Origin: Candidatus Moraniibacteriota bacterium
Lineage (GTDB): Bacteria > Patescibacteriota > Minisyncoccia > Moranbacterales > JAPLXC01
Assembly: GCA_026396275.1 (NCBI GenBank)
Contig: JAPLXC010000019.1
Location: forward strand, 355 to 64,354
Direction of reading: 5' to 3'
DNA: 64,000 nucleotides
Shown here: piece by piece, positions 35,393 through 50,107 of the stretch
How the letters are laid out: the number at the start of each line of letters is the position of its first letter
Numbering within the stretch: the first letter of the stretch is position 1
Made by a program: the position numbers and the translations under genes
Notes under the pieces: model-generated
Databases searched by the model: none
Told to the model about the DNA's origin: nothing
What the model saw: only the letters and a program-made list of their open reading frames with translations

Positions 35393-37336
35393 ATGACCGC
35401 TCAAGAATTACGGCAGAAATTTCTGGACTTTTTTAAGTCGAAGGAGCACGCTATTATTCCTTCGGCGTCTTTAATTCCGCGCGAAACCGACCCGACAGTG
35501 CTTTTTACCACGGCTGGAATGCACCCGCTAGTGCCATATCTTCTGGGGGAAGACCATCCCGGCGGCCGGCGCGTCGCTAACGTGCAAAAATGCATTCGTA
35601 CGGTGGATATTGAAGAAGTAGGGGATAATCGCCACCTTACCTTTTTTGAGATGCTGGGAAACTGGAGTTTTGGCGACCCTGCCTCGCCCGACGGCATTGG
35701 CGGGGCGGGCTATTTTAAGCGCGAGGCGATTGAGTGGAGCTGGGAATTTTTAACTGGCAAAAAATGGCTTGAATTGGATCCGAAAAGAATTTATGTGACA
35801 GTTTTTCAGGAAGAACAGGGGATACCTAGAGACGAAGAGTCAATTATGATTTGGCAGGAAGTGTTGGCTAAAGCCGGAATTTCCAGCAGCGTTGCCGGCG
35901 AAAATTCAATCATCAAAGACGATATCAGAATCATTTCACTGGGAACGGACGACAATTTCTGGATTGCAAGCGCCACTGGTCCCTGCGGTCCGGACACGGA
36001 AATGTTTTATGACACGCGCCCGGCAGATGGCCCAATAAATGATACTTTTGAGAACCTGGTTAATTCCGGCCGCCTGATTGAAATGTGGAACGATGTTTTT
36101 ATGGAGTTTAATAAAACCACCGATGGAAAGTATGAAAAGTTGAAGCAGAAAAATGTGGATACGGGAATGGGAGTGGAACGGACACTGGCGGTGCTTAACG
36201 GAAAAGAAACCGTCTTTGACACGGAATTGTTTGAACCGATTTTCAAGAAAATAAAAAACGTCATCCCGGACTCGATCCGGGATCCAGAAATGGATTCCCG
36301 CCTTCGCGGGAACGACAATGATGATCAGAAAAGCTATAGAATTATCGCTGATCATATAAAAGCTGCTGTTTTTATTCTGGCTGATAGCGTTGTTCCTTCC
36401 AATGTTTTGCAGGGCTACGTCTTGCGCCGCTTAATTCGCCGGGCGATCAGGCACGGAAAAATCATCGGGATTCAGAATAATTTTACCCGGGCAATCGCGA
36501 AAGTGGTGATTGAAACGTACGAAGATTTTTATCCGGAAGTAGGGGAGAATAAAAATAGGATTTTGGAGGAGCTGGAAAAGGAGGAGGATAAATTTAGAAA
36601 AACGTTGGAGAAAGGATTAAAAGAACTTGATTTGTTACTTAAGATTGACCAAGCTATGCCATTTTCTGTTGCTACTTCTAAATCTGGATGGGTGAGCGGA
36701 GAAGAAGCGTTTAATTTATATCAATCTTATGGTTTTCCGTTGGAATTGTTTTTTGAAGAATTGGACAGAAGAAATATCATGTATGATAAAAACAGTATAA
36801 ACAGAGATTTTAATAAAAGATTTATAAAACACCAAAAATTGTCAGAAACAGCGGCGGCCGGGCAATTTAAAGGCGGACTGGCGCAAGTAAGCGAAGAGAC
36901 AGCCCGGCTCCATACGGCCACCCATTTGCTTTTGGCGGCTCTGCGAAACGTTTTAGGGCCGCATGTTTATCAAAAGGGTTCAAATATCACTGCCGAACGG
37001 CTGCGATTTGATTTTTCTCATCCTCAAAAAATGACTTCCGAGGAAATTAAAAAAGTGGAAAGAATTGTGAATGATTATATTGAAAGAAATCTTCCCGTCG
37101 TTGCGGAAGAAATGAGTATTGAAGAAGCCAAAAAGATCGGAGCAATGGGGGTCTTTGATGCCAAATACGGGGAGAAAGTCAGGGTTTACACGATAGGGGA
37201 AAAGATGTTTCCCATAAGCATTGAGATCTGCGGCGGACCGCATGCTAATTCTACCGGAGAACTGGGACATTTCAGAATCGTCAAAGAAGAGGCTTCTTCG
37301 GCGGGAGTGAGAAGAATTAAAGCAATTTTAGAGTAG
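35393..37336 (+). CDS. alaS: Alanyl-tRNA synthetase, short form (catalytic, tRNA-recognition and editing domains; no C-Ala domain)
   Basis: PSASLIP..DPT.LFT.AGM and FEMLGNWSFGDY class II motifs. Editing-domain HTATHLL...H motif present. Confidence 0.85.
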   Translation: MTAQELRQKFLDFFKSKEHAIIPSASLIPRETDPTVLFTTAGMHPLVPYLLGEDHPGGRRVANVQKCIRTVDIEEVGDNRHLTFFEMLGNWSFGDPASPDGIGGAGYFKREAIEWSWEFLTGKKWLELDPKRIYVTVFQEEQGIPRDEESIMIWQEVLAKAGISSSVAGENSIIKDDIRIISLGTDDNFWIASATGPCGPDTEMFYDTRPADGPINDTFENLVNSGRLIEMWNDVFMEFNKTTDGKYEKLKQKNVDTGMGVERTLAVLNGKETVFDTELFEPIFKKIKNVIPDSIRDPEMDSRLRGNDNDDQKSYRIIADHIKAAVFILADSVVPSNVLQGYVLRRLIRRAIRHGKIIGIQNNFTRAIAKVVIETYEDFYPEVGENKNRILEELEKEEDKFRKTLEKGLKELDLLLKIDQAMPFSVATSKSGWVSGEEAFNLYQSYGFPLELFFEELDRRNIMYDKNSINRDFNKRFIKHQKLSETAAAGQFKGGLAQVSEETARLHTATHLLLAALRNVLGPHVYQKGSNITAERLRFDFSHPQKMTSEEIKKVERIVNDYIERNLPVVAEEMSIEEAKKIGAMGVFDAKYGEKVRVYTIGEKMFPISIEICGGPHANSTGELGHFRIVKEEASSAGVRRIKAILE

Positions 37337-37741: not shown

Positions 37742-38353
37742 TTATTCAAATGGCAAGGGCGAGGTCTTTTCTGTTTCTTTTGACTCTGTTTTTGATAACT
37801 CGGCCAGTTTCTTTTTAAAATAGTAAAGATAGAAGGCATAAATTATGATCCCGACTTCTATTACCGTCGGAGCAAACCAGGAATTTTCCCGGCACCCGTC
37901 AAACCGGTCCCAGGCGATGAGAGCCAGTATTGTGTAGAGCGACTCCCAAAACCAGCGGAGGCGATTGTCTTTTTCAAAGCCGTAAGAAAGATTGAAAAGA
38001 ATGAGAAATAAATAAGCGCCTAGAAGAAAAACCCAAAGACCTTCCGGAAGAGAAGAACAGGGCGGTATCTTTTGTGCCACTTTTTGCATTTCTGTCTTGC
38101 TCTTTGGCTGGCTCTCTTCTTCTTTCACGACGGATGCCGCTTCCTCGTCAATGCGCGGCTCGGGATTCAAAAAAGGGGAATCAGAAGGAACTTTGGTCTT
38201 GTCAATAATGAAGTCCTCCGGAGTGTCGGCATCGGAATTTTCGCCTTCAGCGGCCAGAGAAAGAGAAGCGGGAAAAGAAAAAATAATCAGTAATGATATT
38301 ATTACTGACGCTGAAAACATGACGGCTTTATTAAAGCATCCAAACGCTCTCAT
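37742..38353 (-). CDS. Membrane protein, paralog of the 38350..39261 product (shared C-terminal 2-TM domain WFWESLYTILALIAWDRFD)
   Basis: The two C-termini align with each other. N-terminal signal/TM segment. Confidence 0.5.
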   Translation of the reverse strand: MRAFGCFNKAVMFSASVIISLLIIFSFPASLSLAAEGENSDADTPEDFIIDKTKVPSDSPFLNPEPRIDEEAASVVKEEESQPKSKTEMQKVAQKIPPCSSLPEGLWVFLLGAYLFLILFNLSYGFEKDNRLRWFWESLYTILALIAWDRFDGCRENSWFAPTVIEVGIIIYAFYLYYFKKKLAELSKTESKETEKTSPLPFE

Positions 38354-39261
38354 AATTTTTTATCATTGGGAGGGTAAGCTTCCAAATCGCTTCCGGATTG
38401 GATTTTTTTTCTGAAGAAGTAGAGATAAGCGAGATAAATGGCAAAGCCGGAAATTATAGTAGCGTAGACAAACCAAGTATTCGTCCGGCAGCGGTCAAGA
38501 TAGTACCAGCCAATAAGCGCCAAAACTGTGTAGATTACCTGCCAGAACCAGCGAATACTTTTTTGTTCCTGGAATCGATAGGAAAGAGTGAAAATCATAA
38601 GTAGCACATAAGCGGCTAGAATCAGAGCGAAAATCCACCACCTAACCGGAACACATTCTTCCTCGCCGGCTACTAGCCCTTCTGCGCCGGGTCCTGCTTC
38701 AGCGGCGGCTTCCGGTGTTACGCCTTCTTCTGTTACTGCGCCGGCGGCTTGCCCGGGGCGGTAGGGAGGCGGCGCGCCGAGAGCGGTCAAAATTCCGAAT
38801 CCGAAAACCATATCAAATTTCACTTTCTCGTCCTGAAATTCATTTCCGGCTTCCTCGTCAAATTTCACTTTTACTTCGTATCTATTGGATTCGCCGGGCT
38901 CCAGCCGTTCAATGAAAACATCTCCGGCCTTGTCCATTTCGTGGAGAGTGAACCGGTCACCCGGCCCGCCGATGAAATATTTTCCGCTGCTCTTGTCAGT
39001 GAGGTAAAATTTGAGTTCGTCCGCCAAATCGTCATTGCTGACATCGTCAATATTAAGATAAAGGTCTTCCGCTTCAGTGCCGACATTTTCCGCCCGCACT
39101 TCCTTGGTTTTGGAATATCCCGGCGCGGCGTTTTTCACGTCAAAAAGCGGATCATCTTCGGGATTAATGTCTATTTTAACTTCGGCGCAGGCATGACTGG
39201 CCATTCCCAAAACTAGCAGGGAAAATACGCCGAAAATAAATAAAAATTTTAACTTATTCAT
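38350..39261 (-). CDS. Secreted/membrane protein, paralog of the preceding gene
   Basis: Signal peptide, Ala/Gly/Pro linker, and the conserved C-terminal membrane domain WFWQVIYTVLALIGWYYLDRC. Confidence 0.55.
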   Translation of the reverse strand: MNKLKFLFIFGVFSLLVLGMASHACAEVKIDINPEDDPLFDVKNAAPGYSKTKEVRAENVGTEAEDLYLNIDDVSNDDLADELKFYLTDKSSGKYFIGGPGDRFTLHEMDKAGDVFIERLEPGESNRYEVKVKFDEEAGNEFQDEKVKFDMVFGFGILTALGAPPPYRPGQAAGAVTEEGVTPEAAAEAGPGAEGLVAGEEECVPVRWWIFALILAAYVLLMIFTLSYRFQEQKSIRWFWQVIYTVLALIGWYYLDRCRTNTWFVYATIISGFAIYLAYLYFFRKKIQSGSDLEAYPPNDKKL

Positions 39262-39319
39262 AAATTATTTCAAACCTGTTTGAAACTCGGTAACGTTATA
39301 CTGCGGCTGCGGTATAATG

Positions 39320-41308
39320 TTACGCATCTTTTGCCGAGTCATTATCTGATTTAGAATCACCTTTAGAATCATCATCTTTCTGGCTGTCTTTTTTATCCCC
39401 GTCTTTTTTCTTGTCATCATCTTCATCTTTCTTATCGCTGTCGCTATCATCGTCTTTTTGCTGGATAGCACTGGACTTTCCATCAGTTTTTTCCTCATCA
39501 TCTTCTGCCTTATCTCCCTCATCATCCTCGTCTTTCTTTACTTCGGCGGATTCTTCCTCATCGTCACCACTGTCTTTTATTTCTTCTTTAGTATCGCTTG
39601 AAGTGGTATCACCGCCGCCATCGTTATCACTGTCAATATTATCCGCGTCTTCATCCGTTCCGGCATTTTCTTCCGGCGCGGAAGCTGCCGGATCTTCGGC
39701 TTCGCCGCTTTCATCCTCGCCATTTTCTTCCGGAACGATTGCCGGCTCGTCCGTTGTTTCGGCTGTTTCATCAGTGTTATTTTCTTCAGTTGCTTCCTCG
39801 CCACTGGCGCTTTCTTCACCTACTGCTTCATCGGCATCTTCTGAATCCGCTTCTGACCCGTCGGACATTTCGGATTCCTTTTCTTCCTTTTTGTCAAAGT
39901 ATTCTTTTTCCATGAATTCTGGATCGTATTCTTCCGAAGACGGATCATTAACCGATAAATTGGCATGTCCCGGCGTTCCGAAATTCACGCCCTCGTGATC
40001 CCAATAAGTCGTGTTATTGCAATGGAAATCAACGCAAGTATGCCAGCTTCCGGAATCCAAACCGTCGCCCGGAGTATTATTTCTTTCCATTGACATTTGG
40101 AATAATATCCCATGCCAGCCAGCCGGCCAGTGTGGAGTGCCTTTGGCCTGATCAATTATGTTTACGTCTTTGTCTTTTAATATTAAATTGCCATTGTTTG
40201 AATTATAGAGAGAAATACTGTCATTCACTACATCCACATCAACGTTTAACTCCGTATTGGAACTGGTTTTGGGATAATTGGCGATGAGGAAATATCCATG
40301 GGCGGCAATTGATTCGCTTGCAGGGATTTGAATTTTATTATTGCCAGTATGCTTGGCGTTTTCAATTTCCCACTGGCCGATGTCAATTTCATGCCCGGTC
40401 ATATTGCGCAGTTCTATCCATTCGTCGGCAGTATGGCCGAAAGAACCCATCCACATCACTTCGTTAATAATCACATCCCCAGCTTTGGCTGTCACGGAGT
40501 TATTAACCTTAACGTCAATCCAATCCACGGAGTCACTGGGATTTTCCGGATCGGCCGGCACCGGCGCCAGATTCGGGCACTTGTTTCCGGCTTCGTCGCG
40601 GGCTTCCAGCTTGATCGTATAATCGCCGTCATTAACCCCGGTCGTATCCCAGTCAAAAAATTTTTTGTTGGTGAAAGAATTTGTGTCATTAACTGTTCCG
40701 GGTCCTGCAACAATGCTTCCACCGGAATTTTGGATTACCAGCCAGTAATGATGCGGGTTAGCGTCGGTGACAGTGCCGCGAATTTCAACTGTTCCGGAAA
40801 GAGTGTCCCCGTCGTCCGGATTAGTGATTTCTACAACCGGGCATTGAGTGTCCACTTTGAAACTTCCCGTAACAATATTGCTTACCCAGCTTGAATTGTC
40901 ATTATTGGCGGCATGAGCCGAAAAATCCCATTTGCCTTCCGGAACCGGGATGCAGGAGCCGGGATAGAGGTAACTTCCGCTGATTGAGCTTGAATTATGG
41001 GTGAATTCCCAGTAAATAGTAACATCGCTGATGCTCGAGGTGAGCGTAATGCAAGGCGTGCTGGCGTACCATCCGTTATCTCCATCCGGGCTTGAAGGGC
41101 TTACACTCATCGTAAGCTCCGGAATCCAATATCCCGCCGTCATCGTGTTCCCGCCGGAAATCGCCGTATCGGAAAAATAAGAATTAGTCCCGGAAACGCT
41201 GGCAAAAACAACGGCCAAAAACAAGACAGCAAAAACCGAGCCGATTTTCTTCGCCGACCGAAAAATCCTTTTATTGATTATGGATTTATATTTCTTTCTT
41301 TTCTTCAT
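39320..41308 (-). CDS. Large secreted protein with a SipW-cognate (TasA/camelysin-type) signal region, a lamin-tail domain and a long acidic low-complexity tail
   Basis: SGTNSYFSDTAISGGNTMTAGYW (SipW-cognate motif). GDVIINEVMWMGSFGHTADEWIELRNMTGHEIDIGQWEI (lamin-tail domain). About 200 aa of D/E/S-rich tail. Confidence 0.6.
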   Translation of the reverse strand: MKKRKKYKSIINKRIFRSAKKIGSVFAVLFLAVVFASVSGTNSYFSDTAISGGNTMTAGYWIPELTMSVSPSSPDGDNGWYASTPCITLTSSISDVTIYWEFTHNSSSISGSYLYPGSCIPVPEGKWDFSAHAANNDNSSWVSNIVTGSFKVDTQCPVVEITNPDDGDTLSGTVEIRGTVTDANPHHYWLVIQNSGGSIVAGPGTVNDTNSFTNKKFFDWDTTGVNDGDYTIKLEARDEAGNKCPNLAPVPADPENPSDSVDWIDVKVNNSVTAKAGDVIINEVMWMGSFGHTADEWIELRNMTGHEIDIGQWEIENAKHTGNNKIQIPASESIAAHGYFLIANYPKTSSNTELNVDVDVVNDSISLYNSNNGNLILKDKDVNIIDQAKGTPHWPAGWHGILFQMSMERNNTPGDGLDSGSWHTCVDFHCNNTTYWDHEGVNFGTPGHANLSVNDPSSEEYDPEFMEKEYFDKKEEKESEMSDGSEADSEDADEAVGEESASGEEATEENNTDETAETTDEPAIVPEENGEDESGEAEDPAASAPEENAGTDEDADNIDSDNDGGGDTTSSDTKEEIKDSGDDEEESAEVKKDEDDEGDKAEDDEEKTDGKSSAIQQKDDDSDSDKKDEDDDKKKDGDKKDSQKDDDSKGDSKSDNDSAKDA

Positions 41309-41906
41309 AATCTTTATCTAAATTCTCATTCCGTTTTTCAATGCGCTTTTTGTAATCCATCTTTTTTCTTATTTCATTCCTGATTTTCTGCATTTCGTCA
41401 TAAATTATTATCACCGCCGGAATGATTATCAGTAAAATTAATCCGGGCGTTGTTTTGGCGTAACTCACCGGATAGCCGAGAAGGGGGACAGAGATAAATG
41501 CTTTTCCCACAATTCCTTCTTTGGTGAACTTCTCGCCGTCCGGCGCGTCGTTGGCGTCTCCCTTGGTTTCAAACGCGATTTTGCCGCCTGCTTCGCCAGC
41601 CTCGCCGAGTCTAGGCGGGCCGAGTTGAGGCGAGTTAATTTCTTCTTTGCTGACGATCCGGTGGGTGATGGTTATTTTCGGGTCTCTTGTTCTTCTGGTT
41701 ATCACATCGCCGACATTGTAATCAGCCAGCGGTTTAACGAATATCAAGCTCCCTGCGTGGATCGCCGGGGACATTGACCCGGACATTACGGTAAAGACCT
41801 TATAGTTTCCCGGAAATGGAATGAATGAGAATACCACCAGAACGCCGATGAGAACGAGCGCAACCAGCAGGGTATTTACAGTGTACTTAAAAATTTTTCC
41901 GATCAT
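41286..41906 (-). CDS. sipW: Signal peptidase I of the SipW/archaeal type (S26B)
   Basis: SGSMSPAIHAGSLIFV Ser box and GDVITRRT. Confidence 0.75.
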   Translation of the reverse strand: MIGKIFKYTVNTLLVALVLIGVLVVFSFIPFPGNYKVFTVMSGSMSPAIHAGSLIFVKPLADYNVGDVITRRTRDPKITITHRIVSKEEINSPQLGPPRLGEAGEAGGKIAFETKGDANDAPDGEKFTKEGIVGKAFISVPLLGYPVSYAKTTPGLILLIIIPAVIIIYDEMQKIRNEIRKKMDYKKRIEKRNENLDKDYEEKKEI

Positions 41907-41929
41907 TTTTATTTAAACATTCAAACATC

Positions 41930-42139
41930 TTAACATTTCAACTCTTTTTTCAATTTTTCTATTTCTTTCTTCCCTTCTTCTCCAACAATTTTTCCGCACT
42001 CTGGGCAATAGCCATGAGATATTGATCCTTTCGGCACATCTTCAACGGTTCCATATTCTTTCCCGCACTTTAAACACTTCATTATTCCTTTACCAATCTT
42101 CTGTTCTGGCGGTTTTATAAAACTATTTTCTCCTTCCAT
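41930..42139 (-). CDS. Small zinc-ribbon protein
   Basis: CLKCG...CPECG double CxxC. Confidence 0.5.
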   Translation of the reverse strand: MEGENSFIKPPEQKIGKGIMKCLKCGKEYGTVEDVPKGSISHGYCPECGKIVGEEGKKEIEKLKKELKC

Positions 42140-42233
42140 ATTTGTAAATTTTGAATTTGGGATTTTGGATTTGATTTGTCATTTGACATTGGGATTTTGA
42201 ATTTCCGAAGCAGAACTTCGGTTCCTCCCTCTA

Positions 42234-42270
42234 CTTGTTACGTAACTTGTTAAGTAACTTGTTACGTAAC
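42234..42270. promoter_or_regulatory. Three tandem 12-mers CTTGTTACGTAA / CTTGTTAAGTAA / CTTGTTACGTAA upstream of the sipW operon; candidate operator array
   Basis: Read directly. The TTACGTAA palindromic core also occurs at 2209 and, as AATTACGTAATT, at about 59497. Confidence 0.45.
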
Positions 42271-42284
42271 AAAAAGAGATCGGA

Positions 42285-42860
42285 TTAGCGGTGAGGATTA
42301 TACGCATTCATAACAAAATCAAAGGTACAAGTTTTTCCTTGCAAAGTATCGCCAGCAATTGTTGGTAAGCAAACTTCATATTTAGTGGTTATTGAACTTC
42401 CTGCAATAAGCCCTCCACCGTACCATGACATTAACAGATTTGCTTCAGTTACTCCGTTAAGAGCACCGGTCGCATATGCAGTTTCACAAGTACCAGAGCA
42501 TCTTTCAATTTTTGCTGTTAAAGCGTTGCAAAGTCCTGTGTCTCCAGTAAAATCGGCTGTGCTAATTACTAATTCCTTAGCAGTTAGAGTACTTGGTCCA
42601 GCAAACCAAGGTGCGCCGTAGTTTTGAACATCAAATTCTCCTGTCTTACAATCGCCAGGAGCCATATCTGAAGCAGTAAATCCTGCTATCGTTGGCTGGC
42701 CATTTACTCTAATTTGCAAGGTTCCAGTTGCGAAACTGTTATTATCTACAGTTGCAGTAGAGCTAAATATTGCCCAGGTGGCGACGGATGCGACGGCGGC
42801 GACGGCGACGACGATTACCAAGCTCTTAATTATATTTTTCATTTCATATACACCTCCCAA
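42285..42860 (-). CDS. TasA/camelysin-like secreted protein with a SipW-cognate signal
   Basis: Signal peptide followed by AIFSSTATVDNNSFATGTLQI. Confidence 0.6.
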   Translation of the reverse strand: MGGVYEMKNIIKSLVIVVAVAAVASVATWAIFSSTATVDNNSFATGTLQIRVNGQPTIAGFTASDMAPGDCKTGEFDVQNYGAPWFAGPSTLTAKELVISTADFTGDTGLCNALTAKIERCSGTCETAYATGALNGVTEANLLMSWYGGGLIAGSSITTKYEVCLPTIAGDTLQGKTCTFDFVMNAYNPHR

Positions 42861-43089: not shown

Positions 43090-43344
43090 TTATTCTAAAC
43101 TTTTCTTTATTCTTTTTTTTAATTCTTGCAGGCCTCTCGCGTTCTTCTTTAATTTGCTTTCTCTTCTGAAAGCGTCTTCTTTTGAGTAAAACGCTTCGTA
43201 ATATCTGACTTCCCATGGTCCTCTAAATCGGGTAAATACTGATTTGTTTTGGTTATGCTTGTTTACTCTTTCTTTTAGATTGTTCGTGCAACCAATATAT
43301 ATCCCGCTATCCCTCCGGCTTTTAATAATATAAACGTAATACAT
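43090..43344 (-). CDS. GIY-YIG nuclease-domain protein (small standalone)
   Basis: YVYIIKSRRDSGIYIGCTNNLKERVNKH. Confidence 0.7.
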   Translation of the reverse strand: MYYVYIIKSRRDSGIYIGCTNNLKERVNKHNQNKSVFTRFRGPWEVRYYEAFYSKEDAFRRESKLKKNARGLQELKKRIKKSLE

Positions 43345-43595
43345 AGAATAAAAGTGGTGGGGGATAAAAACAAAACCGGCCTAAACCAACAAGCGCAGCA
43401 CTTATTAATTCAGGCCGGTTTCGCTATTTTGCTCCCCGCGCTTCACTGGCGACCAATGGTATCTTTCGTCACGAGAGTTTCTGGCGCGGATCCACGCTTT
43501 CCCGAACGGTTTTGTTTTTTTGTTTTCCTTTGTTATCTTATGCTACTATAGCGCCAGTTGAATATTCTGTCAACGAAATTATCCACAGTTTTTGG

Positions 43596-43633
43596 CTTGA
43601 CAAAAGGAAAATTTATGTTTTAATTTTTTACTG
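43596..43633. repeat. 38-bp direct repeat copy 1 (cTTGACAaaaggaaaatttatgTTTTAATtttttac), promoter-like
   Basis: About 85% identical to 44526-44564. Overlaps the stop codon of the metalloprotease gene. Confidence 0.7.
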
Positions 43634-44422
43634 ATAAATGGCAGTCACCCCATCAATATCTCCTGTTGTTAAAGTGTCTTTATTAATTTCTCCTTTAAAG
43701 CCGTAGCCGTACATTGTGTTGTTTCTATAAATTGTAGTGTATTCGTCATCCAAACCGACCCAGTGTCCAAGTTCGTGGGTCAAAATGTCTTGAGCGTCAT
43801 AGGTAACAAGATTCGGGCAGGCGGTCGGTGAAAATGGCGTCCAAGTCCAGGAAAACTTTTTGTTCATAATCGTGTCGGTTTCTACTGCCAGTCCGGTGCT
43901 TTGGTAATACCATATATAAGTAATTCCCAATGCGCTGCCGGGCGCGCTCCCAAAAGCCACTATATTTTTCCCATCCAAAGCTTTTTTTGAAAGGGTTGTT
44001 ACTCCGGCATTTTTGAAGATTACTCCCGCCGCATTAATCTCTGTACCTTGCCAAGTTTCAAAAGATAAATTCGTCAAATTACTGAACTTGGAAGAACCGA
44101 CCGAACTAGGAGCACTGCCCGCATTCAAGTAATATTTCCATTCGCCTGCCGGAAGCTCCCAGCCGGCTGGACTGACCATGGCAGTTGAATCAGGATCACT
44201 GTAACTGCATTGCAGGGGCTTGGTTTCTTTCACTTTCGGATAATGCACAAACACCCTGACTTTGAGGTTAGGATGCCCCGGCACGTCGTAAACGCCGTTT
44301 TGTTCAGGAATTGCCCAATCATCATCGGTATTGTCGTCATTTTTGGCTAAAACCGGACTTACCGACAAAACCAGCGCGGCCATTGCAAGAATCAAAGAGG
44401 TAAAAATAAGTTTTTTAAGCAT
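43628..44422 (-). CDS. Secreted matrixin-like zinc metalloprotease (metzincin)
   Basis: Signal peptide. HELGHWVGLDD (HExxHxxGxxD) and C-terminal GDIDGVTAIYQ. Confidence 0.7.
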   Translation of the reverse strand: MLKKLIFTSLILAMAALVLSVSPVLAKNDDNTDDDWAIPEQNGVYDVPGHPNLKVRVFVHYPKVKETKPLQCSYSDPDSTAMVSPAGWELPAGEWKYYLNAGSAPSSVGSSKFSNLTNLSFETWQGTEINAAGVIFKNAGVTTLSKKALDGKNIVAFGSAPGSALGITYIWYYQSTGLAVETDTIMNKKFSWTWTPFSPTACPNLVTYDAQDILTHELGHWVGLDDEYTTIYRNNTMYGYGFKGEINKDTLTTGDIDGVTAIYQ

Positions 44423-44525: not shown

Positions 44526-44564
44526 GCCTGACAAAAAGGAAAAATATTGTTTAATTTTTTCCCA
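44526..44564. repeat. 38-bp direct repeat copy 2 (cCTGACAaaaaggaaaaatattgTTTAATtttttc)
   Basis: See copy 1. Positioned as a possible promoter for the wHTH gene. Confidence 0.7.
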
Positions 44565-44570
44565 CTCATT

Positions 44571-44620
44571 CGCTATCCATCGCTATCCATATTCCACATA
44601 CTTGCGGCCGCGAATATGTG
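44571..44620. repeat. Left inverted-repeat arm: (CGCTATCCAT)x2 followed by the palindrome CACATACTTGCGGCCGCGAATATGTG
   Basis: Mirrors the right arm at 45404-45464 (CACTTATCTGCGGCCGCAAATAAGTG followed by GATAG-type repeats). Confidence 0.75.
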
Positions 44621-44727
44621 TTATACTGGATATAGGTACTTTATACAGGTATTTTATGCAGATATTTTGCGCAACAGAAAATTGCTAAGACGGCCAATAA
44701 ACAATAAACGCAAGCTGACTAAAGCTA

Positions 44728-45311
44728 TGGCAAGAAGGGAGAAAATGAAAAATGTGATCGCGAAAAATATTTTAAGCGGCACCTTGAGCGCAACGGCTTG
44801 GGCATTTGAGTTATTGATTAATGCTGGTGTTTTGACTATTGAAGCGTTTCTTAACCCGTCTGTGTACGCGGACATGCCGAGCGTATTGTATCAAAGGAAC
44901 TTTATCAAGAAGAAAAAAGCTAAGTTTCGGGAAATGACAATAAGGCAAAGCCTCTGGAGACTTAAAAGAGCTGGCTTTGTGGCTAAAAAAGAAAATAGAT
45001 ATTTTCTTACAAAAAAGGGGAAGAAACTCGCTCTTTTTGTGCGTGGCAGAAGTGATGTGATTACTAAGCAATGGGACAAGAAATACAGAGTAGTTATTTT
45101 TGATATCCCGGAAGAAAAAAAGAAAATCCGTGACTGGTTAAGGCAGGAGTTAAATATGCTGAACTACAGAAAACTCCAGGAAAGCGTTTTTATCGGCAAA
45201 TATCCTCTGCCGCAGGACCTGATTGAGAGTATTAAAGAATATAAAATAGGGAATTGTGTCAATTACCTTCTTGTTGAAAAAGTGTATAAAAACGTTGAAC
45301 AGAGCTTTTGA
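44728..45311 (+). CDS. Winged-helix DNA-binding domain fused to a Cas2/VapD-like C-terminal domain (PaaX-like architecture); start revised to MARREKMKNV
   Basis: LWRLKRAGFVAKKENRYFLTKKGKKL (wHTH-like). YRVVIFDIPEEKKKIRDWLRQELNMLNYRKLQESVFI resembles the Cas2 beta1-alpha1-beta2 core. Confidence 0.5.
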
Positions 45312-49624: not shown

Positions 49625-50107
49625 TTAAGTTGCCTTTCGTTTTCTTCTCTTTAGTGCAAATTTCAGGCCAACCGATGTAACGATAATTGAGATTAGTATG
49701 AATTTCAAGGGTATTCCTCCTAAATTTACAAGAGCGGCGTAGCCCAGCAATGGAATTCTAAAAAAATATATCCCCCTCACATAGGAAATCAGGACTACCT
49801 CAGAATCATTGTTAGCGTCTCCCTTGGCAATGATATACTGATCTGAGACCCAAAGCACTCTGTGCAGTACTTCATAGTAGGAGTTAAGTTTATAATAGAC
49901 AATATCTCCTATCTCAATTTTCTCAGGTCGGCTTATCAATCTGGTTACTATTAAATCACCTTCTTTCAAAGTCGGGTGCATGCTCTCGCTGCAAAATGAG
50001 CGAATCTCATATTTACCGGAGAAGCGGAAAAAACAGAGGCAGGCAATAAAGATTATAAGAATTGCCGTAATAAAATACCTGAAGTATTTTTTCATTTTTC
50101 CCTCCAA
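49625..50107 (-). CDS. Signal peptidase I (S26, SipW-like short form)
   Basis: SESMHPTLKEGDLIVT and IGDIVYY. Confidence 0.7.
   Translation of the reverse strand: MEGKMKKYFRYFITAILIIFIACLCFFRFSGKYEIRSFCSESMHPTLKEGDLIVTRLISRPEKIEIGDIVYYKLNSYYEVLHRVLWVSDQYIIAKGDANNDSEVVLISYVRGIYFFRIPLLGYAALVNLGGIPLKFILISIIVTSVGLKFALKRRKRKAT

Follow-up and report, generated by a model that had tools for sequence, protein, structure and literature searches.

A stretch of 64,000 nt from a metagenome-assembled genome (MAG) of Candidatus Moranbacteria, which was analyzed at its full length and is called the window in the following, contains six co-directional open reading frames (ORFs) on the minus strand between positions 37742 and 42860. 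They were termed A to F and form a candidate system for an extracellular fibre of the TasA type. An earlier reading from the sequence alone (the sequence-only reading) had listed these six ORFs, and all of them were found to be present. It had also assumed an origin from the Candidate Phyla Radiation (CPR), which was confirmed because the identical database proteins, one named 'TasA family protein' and the other 'hypothetical protein NT136_04120', stem from a Candidatus Moranbacteria MAG (a contig of 65.4 kb). The genes of the cluster and their subregions are the following.

42285-42842, minus strand: gene A, 185 amino acids counted from the ATG at 42842, the proposed major fibre subunit of the TasA family.
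42205-42284, minus strand: two stem-loops, predicted by RNA folding, directly 3' of the stop codon of gene A.
41930-42139, minus strand: gene B, 69 amino acids, two CxxC pairs, zinc-ribbon-like.
41286-41906, minus strand: gene C, signal peptidase I of the archaeal/endoplasmic reticulum (ER) type, i.e. the SipW type, 206 amino acids with an N-terminal and a C-terminal transmembrane (TM) helix.
39320-41308, minus strand: gene D, 662 amino acids, proposed end piece that has only a donor strand, analogous to TapA/TafC, judged from its domain matches and its place after the SipW gene.
41126-41245, minus strand: residues 22-61 of D, signal peptide and donor-strand-like motif, GTNS at the cleavage site followed by YFSDTAISGGNTMTAGYW.
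40184-40489, minus strand: residues 274-375 of D, lamin tail domain (LTD; PF00932, 51.8 bits against a threshold of 34.3).
39323-39946, minus strand: residues 455-662 of D, acidic low-complexity tail of 208 amino acids, defined by composition.
38350-39261, minus strand: gene E, 303 amino acids, proposed TasA-like protein that is anchored in the membrane and serves as an acceptor only, an analogue of TafF, judged from profile alignment (hhalign), Foldseek and position.
38794-39198, minus strand: residues 22-156 of E, TasA-like jelly-roll domain, immediately preceded by a signal peptide of the ordinary AxA kind (predicted local confidence, pLDDT, 80-89).
38386-38667, minus strand: residues 199-292 of E, C-terminal anchor domain with three TM helices (3-TM), defined by the helices of the AlphaFold 2 (AF2) model and by invariant columns.
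37742-38353, minus strand: gene F, 203 amino acids, consisting of a signal peptide, an acidic ecto-segment of about 60 amino acids and a 3-TM domain (residues 94-190).

Gaps of 145 nt and 23 nt separate A from B and B from C, respectively, C and D overlap by 23 nt, D and E are 58 nt apart, and E and F overlap by 4 nt. Housekeeping genes are found on both flanks: on one side these are alaS and mnmA, and a GIY-YIG ORF, a metalloprotease gene, a gene for a PaaX-like protein and the genes for L21, recR, dnaB and cysS on the other. In a sigma-70 scan for a promoter of the operon, no clear candidate rose above the shuffled background. Within the window, the signal/donor-strand motif was confined to A and D, the TasA-like domain to A and E, and the 3-TM domain to E and F.

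The ORF of gene A can be extended to a TTG (42285-42860, 191 amino acids). The ATG at 42842 is likely to be the true start, as it is preceded by a GGAGG motif 10 nt upstream and yields the length of the NCBI protein P0001 (185 amino acids). A contains FSSTATVDNNSFATGTL, and its signal peptide with a predicted SipW site between TWA and IF is followed by the donor-strand segment IFSSTATVDNNSF. The view of A as a TasA/camelysin-like protein with a SipW-cognate signal was borne out. The scores for PF12389 (30.0 bits, Pfam gathering threshold 22.5) and for the SipW-cognate signal TIGR04088 (24.8 bits, cut-off 19) were above the cut-offs, and PF12389 was also precomputed on most of the homologues. 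A is a family-level relative only, with 18.6 bits for the B. subtilis TasA equivalog NF046066, far below the required 450 bits. The AF2 model of the monomer (pLDDT 84), in which the N-terminal residues 19-33 are disordered, has the TasA jelly-roll fold, and its closest structural match was the TasA fibre (8aur_A). A role as a camelysin-type protease was set aside, as the sequence contains no HExxH motif and the closest folds are fibre subunits.

The assignment of C to the SipW-type peptidases also stood. C contains the motifs SGSMSP, THR and GDAN, scored 104.7 bits with the profile for archaeal-type signal peptidase I (TIGR02228, cut-off 51.85), and could be aligned with human SEC11A over the catalytic Ser and His motifs (SGSMSP, ITHR). 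Therefore, it is not of the LepB type, and no LepB-type enzyme was found among the window ORFs scanned. The score for the Bacillus SipW equivalog NF046067 was 96.2 bits, below the cut-off of 190. About 8 kb away, between the gene for a secreted 196-aa protein and cysS, the window encodes a further peptidase that is 24% identical to C:

49625-50107, minus strand: second archaeal/ER-type signal peptidase I, 160 amino acids (TIGR02228, 66.6 bits against 51.85).

D was found to have the composition predicted for it, namely 662 amino acids with an LTD and a tail of about 200 residues rich in Asp, Glu and Ser. The tail comprises 43% D+E, 11% K+R and 16% S+T, and just 13 of its 208 residues are hydrophobic; acidic tails also occur in the D-type proteins of four of the related loci described below (L001, L002, L017 and L020). 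In addition to the LTD, a Big_7 immunoglobulin (Ig)-like domain was matched, while the first domain (residues 62-155) could not be assigned to any family and a search with D against PDB sequences gave no match. A beta-sandwich homologous to that of TapA was not detected in Pfam, NCBIfam or PDB sequence searches, so that the likeness of D to TapA would be one of function at most. At its N-terminus, D contains SYFSDTAISGGNTMTAGYW. A profile-profile comparison of D-type and A-type N-termini, for which the segments were picked by a regular expression and thus by a biased choice, gave a probability of 98.1 and an E-value of 1e-13. The consensus is xTNA[YF]FxDxAxVxGNxFSxGxW for the D-type and GATxAxFSSxAxVxxNTFATGTL for the A-type termini.

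The N-terminal half of E is TasA-like, which the sequence-only reading had overlooked. This half matched A in BLASTP (E-value 0.005), the alignment of the E family with the TasA family by hhalign spanned 153 columns (probability 98.6, E-value 5e-16), and the TasA fibre 8aur_A was the best Foldseek match of the E model (E-value 2.6e-7). The alignment of the families revealed a gap in E of about 16 residues, which in A form the SipW motif and the donor strand. No homologue of E was found on plasmids by tblastn.

E and F had been described as paralogues with a common C-terminal domain of two TM helices. The paralogy was substantiated (39% identity, E-value 3e-29), and the number of helices had to be corrected, since the AF2 model of E contains three (residues 208-227, 238-255 and 263-289; pLDDT 81-94). 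The residues C203, W252, D256 and C258 are invariant in this domain. Given this number of helices, the first loop and the K/R-rich tail would be intracellular, and C203, C258, W252 and D256 would be exposed on the outer face of the membrane. No significant match to the 3-TM domain was found in Pfam or NCBIfam.

An exhaustive profile search with the E family retrieved 2601 representatives at an E-value of 1e-3 or lower, 80 of them at 1e-30 or lower. The architectures were counted for the best 150 of the 2601 representatives, and taxonomic names were almost absent among the clusters of 3-TM proteins. A TasA-like domain was combined with the 3-TM domain in 93 of these 150 proteins, and a SipW-type motif was present in 0 of the 93. 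In 16 further proteins, the TasA-like domain was combined with another C-terminal TM helix or with an LPXTG signal. The 3-TM module formed the end of other proteins in 14 cases, and 12 of these 14 had lengths of 500-1900 residues. Seven of the large proteins were scanned and found to contain SdrD_B, SpaA, Big, cadherin, HYR, DUF11 or beta-helix domains. In such giant adhesin-like proteins (L017 9172-11286, P0159, P0163, P0164, P0171, P0177, P0181 and P0237), the 3-TM module occupies the place that is usual for LPXTG. The remaining group consisted of 19 small F-like proteins. Members of the F-like family (F of the window, P0166, P0170 and P0180; L024 7847-8431) have conserved the ecto-peptide P[RK]ID.EAA..[KR]E and the cytoplasmic C-terminal sequence RLP[LF]E.

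Three further features of these proteins were observed. Some E-like proteins also end with ...LPL(E). A motif V[LA]G.E precedes the C-terminal anchor by a few residues, irrespective of the anchor type, in L001, L006, L008, L010, L014, L015 and at residues 195-202 of E, with instances such as GLVAGEEE, VLGEELPTTGG and VLGAE in E-like and LPXTG proteins. P0122, P0184 and P0196 have an additional domain similar to fibronectin type III (FN3) between the TasA-like domain and the membrane anchor, and one FN3-bearing E-like protein is named 'fibronectin type III domain-containing protein' by its source.

The conservation of the operon was analyzed with 20 distinct related loci, which had been retrieved either via TasA homologues (L001-L016, L021, L023) or via E homologues (L017, L018, L020). 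The sequence-only reading had suggested a check of the conservation in relatives and had named, as findings that would contradict it, signal-motif proteins without a TasA/camelysin-like fold together with a generic LepB-type peptidase with unrelated neighbours. This combination was not observed. Instead, a SipW-type gene directly followed the TasA gene or genes in 19 of the 20 loci, and this adjacency held across divergent Patescibacteria, down to a TasA identity of 39%. The next gene encoded a protein with the same signal/donor motif (D-type) in 13 loci, 9 of these 13 proteins with a detectable LTD, and an E-like protein then followed in 11 loci; its gene had the same position in L003, L017, L018, L020 and L021. 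The gene order TasA, SipW, LTD protein and anchored TasA-like protein thus recurs in many loci of Patescibacteria.

The bodies of the D-type proteins were not uniform. They consisted of a bare LTD in L009, L011 and L015, of Ig-like domains and an LTD in the window, L003, L005, L017 and L021, and of a complete TasA-like domain fused to an LTD in L018 and L020. Likewise, the C-terminal ends of the E-like proteins differed. The 3-TM domain was recognized by its profile in the window, L003, L017, L018, L020 and L021, and in L009 by hydropathy only. A single TM helix with a basic tail was found in L011 and L015, a LAATG motif followed by a TM helix, RRHR and then a sortase gene in L001, and an LPITG or LPRTG sorting signal in L006 and L008. 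Therefore, the anchor of the E-like proteins is interchangeable across loci. The earlier idea of a dedicated membrane anchor was strengthened for E, which is an anchored TasA-like domain with orthologues that carry LPXTG/LAXTG or single-TM anchors. In L006 (10628-12070) and L008 (10556-11926), SipW and the E-like protein are even encoded by one ORF. The order of these fusions, which end with LPITG or LPRTG, is TM, peptidase, TM, TM, TasA-like domain and LPXTG, and is topologically coherent. A 96-aa LPITG fragment is encoded upstream of the fusion ORF in L006 (9273-9563).

Taken together, we regard it as probable that the cluster encodes a TasA-type extracellular fibre that is formed by donor-strand complementation and involves three structural roles and one processing enzyme. 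At the membrane's outer face, C would remove the special signal peptides from A and D and thereby free N-terminal segments that are homologous to the TasA donor strand (IFSSTATVDNN... in A and YFSDTAISGG... in D). A would form the shaft as a head-to-tail polymer, because it has both an acceptor groove in its TasA jelly-roll and a donor strand. D could be placed only at the groove end of the fibre, because it has a donor strand and lacks a TasA domain; in this place, it would serve to nucleate the fibre or to cap it, as has been proposed for TapA and TafC, and it would display two Ig-like domains, the LTD and the long acidic tail at the cell-distal end. E could be placed only at the strand end, because it has a TasA-like groove, no donor strand and a 3-TM membrane anchor. 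It would thus be the cell-proximal base or terminator, which takes the strand of the last subunit. F consists of the 3-TM module only; it may be a partner of E in the membrane and would be optional. The identities, folds and motifs of the proteins, the conserved gene order and the exchange of the anchors were established by the analysis; polymerisation, the polarity of the fibre, binding by its tip and a role in cell attachment are inferred.

A more far-reaching proposal is put forward tentatively, as we judge it to be possible and not yet likely. The 3-TM domain with its invariant Cys...Trp-x3-Asp-x-Cys pattern may be an undescribed, widespread anchor of Patescibacteria that replaces the LPXTG/sortase system. 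It might hold an acceptor-only TasA-like domain beside SipW and thereby enable a chaperone-free assembly, coupled to cleavage, of a fibre with an LTD at its tip that would make contact with hosts or substrates. The SipW::E-like fusions suggest such a cleavage-coupled assembly platform.

Several points weigh against the fibre as described. The insertion of the D strand into A and of the A strand into E is a prediction from fold, motif and synteny. In the B. subtilis model, the donor-only protein TapA marks the cell-associated end, a polarity opposite to the one proposed here. The claim that A and D share the same signal stood insofar as the motif is common to both and conserved in relatives; it is weakened by the TIGR04088 score of the D N-terminus, which was 14.5 bits against the cut-off of 19, with positions 3-34 of the 34 profile positions aligned. 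The archaeal-type peptidase class may represent the general signal peptidase of the organism and not a dedicated one. With the second archaeal-type peptidase in the window, a dedication of C to its proposed substrates is not proven. Some loci contain TasA and SipW and lack E (L005) or both the D-type and the E-like protein (L007, L014). The loci L017, L018 and L020 are biased towards containing E, as they were retrieved with E homologues. An F-like gene (P0180 in L024) adjoins alaS, as in the window, and follows a gene for a DUF11 surface protein in a locus that contains neither TasA nor SipW. The membership of F in the TasA system is therefore uncertain, and F may be a general companion of surface proteins.

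Three other explanations were considered. The fibre could be shed into a matrix, in the manner of Bacillus biofilms, with A as a released scaffold, E as a nucleation platform or chaperone in the membrane beside SipW, and D as a component of the matrix. In B. subtilis, TasA serves mainly as a scaffold of the matrix, while TapA is of low abundance and acts catalytically, and the fusions of SipW and E would fit equally well with a role at the cleavage site. 'Non-finalised' secreted chains have also been considered for the fimbriae of haloarchaea (PMC11821415). We nevertheless hold this explanation to be unlikely, as the E-like proteins are almost always permanently anchored, in some cases even by covalent sortase signals, which suits a structural base better than a catalyst that turns over, and as E lacks the strand that a chaperone would donate. 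Alternatively, D might not belong to the fibre at all, but be an independent secreted LTD protein, e.g. a binder of nucleic acids or other polymers, that makes use of SipW for its export. LTDs are common in diverse extracellular proteins of bacteria, D of the window contains no TasA domain, and its signal score is sub-threshold, all of which would be in agreement with such a role. It would leave unexplained why D-type proteins have conserved the donor-strand-like segment far beyond the cleavage site, why the place of D is fixed between SipW and the E-like gene, and why a TasA-like domain is fused to an LTD in L018 and L020, and thus we would not expect it to be correct.

The explanation that dispenses with the fibre altogether appears quite improbable to us. 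C would be one of several general signal peptidases, A and E would be monomeric envelope proteins, and the adjacency of the genes would reflect nothing but the co-expression of secreted proteins. It can be held in its favour that the second archaeal-type peptidase of the window adjoins a gene for an unrelated secreted protein, and that the literature searched contained no data on polymerisation of CPR homologues. It is at variance with the tight adjacency of TasA and SipW across divergent Patescibacteria, with the occurrence of SipW::E-like fusions, with the retention of the donor-strand segment in A and its specific loss in E, and with the fibre subunits as the closest folds.

The remaining elements in and around the cluster were also inspected. 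The stem-loops behind gene A have a predicted stability of -42.3 kcal/mol (z=-5.4), and 0 of 200 shuffled sequences were equally stable. Their role may be that of a partial terminator, or of an RNA stabiliser that sets the subunit ratio, and they could attenuate read-through into the genes for the minor subunits. A zinc-ribbon protein had been counted as a member of the operon. The ORF of B and its two CxxC pairs exist, its matches to zinc ribbons were sub-threshold only, and no homologue was found in any of 23 related loci. B was therefore ruled out as a component of the system and is probably a lineage-specific insert, not a core part.

Upstream of the operon, the following gene was noted, which is separated from it by a terminator-like hairpin (43376-43418):

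43628-44422, minus strand: gene G, secreted HExxH metalloprotease, M10-like, with sub-threshold M10 and NF041905 matches.

A homologue of G that is 55% identical lies directly upstream of TasA in L021 (5970-6740) and L022 (4084-4854), and G may be an accessory gene on a transcription unit of its own. A small stand-alone GIY-YIG ORF (43090-43344, minus strand) adjoins the operon, and copies are present at the same position in L018 (1026-1316, 71% identical) and just after the operon in L020 (8229-8525, 40% identical). A protein with PaaX_M (Cas2-like fold) and winged-helix domains is encoded divergently upstream (44547-45311, plus strand) and may be a regulator; its synteny with L21 is kept in L024 (1384-1986). 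The alaS gene (35393-37336) contains an in-frame double-hairpin palindrome of about 60 nt (36260-36320, plus strand), GTCATCCCGGACTCGATCCGGGATCCAGAAATGGATTCCCGCCTTCGCGGGAACGAC, which is translated as ...IPDSIRDPEMDSRLRGNDN.... The core of the palindrome, TCCCGC-N4-GCGGGA, also occurs at 2558 and 22745, i.e. in three copies compared with 0.1 expected, and the element looks like a REP/RPE-type repeat that has been inserted into a coding region.

Those CPR bacteria that have been cultivated live attached to other cells; to our knowledge, only type IV pili have so far been tied to their cell contact. The cluster may plausibly encode an attachment structure, and it would be a second compact and conserved candidate for a surface appendage of CPR bacteria, to which tip, shaft, base and processing parts can be assigned. 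The three-part architecture is directly testable, and the fusions of SipW with the anchor protein are informative about it. The 3-TM anchor module is unannotated and is present in at least 80 clusters of E-like proteins as well as in giant adhesin-like proteins, and its recognition could improve the annotation of CPR surface proteins. In the literature searched, TasA/SipW, donor strands or LTDs were not linked to the CPR beyond one line, in which the occurrence of PF12389 in Patescibacteria is noted solely as a fact of distribution (PMC9245690), and the 3-TM module was undescribed.

The sequence-only reading had likened the cluster to tapA-sipW-tasA of Bacillus (PMC9674648, PMC10151520). This comparison held for the fold, the signal and the peptidase class, and failed for the equivalog cut-offs and for a homology to TapA. 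In both systems, the gene for an ER/archaeal-type peptidase adjoins the genes of its substrates, and the major subunit combines a TasA jelly-roll with an N-terminal donor strand that is exposed by cleavage. In B. subtilis TasA, this strand comprises residues 28-38 and begins right behind the SipW cleavage site; a similar strand is carried by TapA, which has been proposed to supply the first one (PMC9674648). Both systems also have a second substrate with a similar N-terminal strand and a different body, TapA in Bacillus and D in the present cluster. In contrast to Bacillus, A and C stay far below the equivalog cut-offs (18.6 versus 450 and 96 versus 190 bits), D carries an LTD and an acidic tail besides its Ig-like domains, and the anchored donor-less TasA-like protein E has no Bacillus counterpart. 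Compared with the Bacillus system, the present cluster thus adds an anchored acceptor and exchanges the body of TapA.

The relationship to the archaeal bundling pili (ABP) AbpA/AbpB of Pyrobaculum is visible by fold only, and the ABP locus lacks a dedicated peptidase and has other accessory proteins (PMC9245690). Sortase-assembled and chaperone-usher pili share the general logic of tip adhesin, shaft and base anchor, which is a functional analogy only. As in sortase pili, the E-like orthologues in L001, L006 and L008 use LPXTG/LAXTG signals; neither a sortase nor an LPXTG signal was found among the window ORFs. In contrast to chaperone-usher pili, no usher or chaperone is present here, and the linkage of the subunits is presumably a non-covalent strand complementation.

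The Tat-fimbriae (tafi) of haloarchaea have been modelled with TafC as the tip, TafE/TafA as the shaft, TafD as the peptidase and TafF as the anchor (PMC11821415, PMC12337348), a model that is based on AlphaFold predictions and on knockouts of tafA and tafD only (PMC11821415, PMC12337348). Several differences from the present cluster are evident. The tafi pilins use Tat signals, whereas an RR motif is absent from the N-termini of A and D, which carry a SipW-type Sec motif instead. The subunits encoded here belong to the TasA family, whereas the tafi pilins have been described as a group apart from the TasA/ABP type, and the tip domain is an LTD instead of a laminin-G-like domain. A match to TafG (DUF5305) was not found in the proteins of the cluster or its neighbours, and a counterpart of TafB was not seen either. 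The same four roles are proposed in both systems, i.e. a dedicated peptidase, a major pilin, a tip with an adhesive domain and an anchor. In TafF, an ordinary Sec signal and a pilin-like N-domain are combined with three TM helices at the C-terminus, and this protein has been proposed to accept the last donor strand (PMC11821415). This is also the architecture of E, and the cluster would provide bacterial support for a tip/anchor model that had previously been developed for the haloarchaeal tafi alone.

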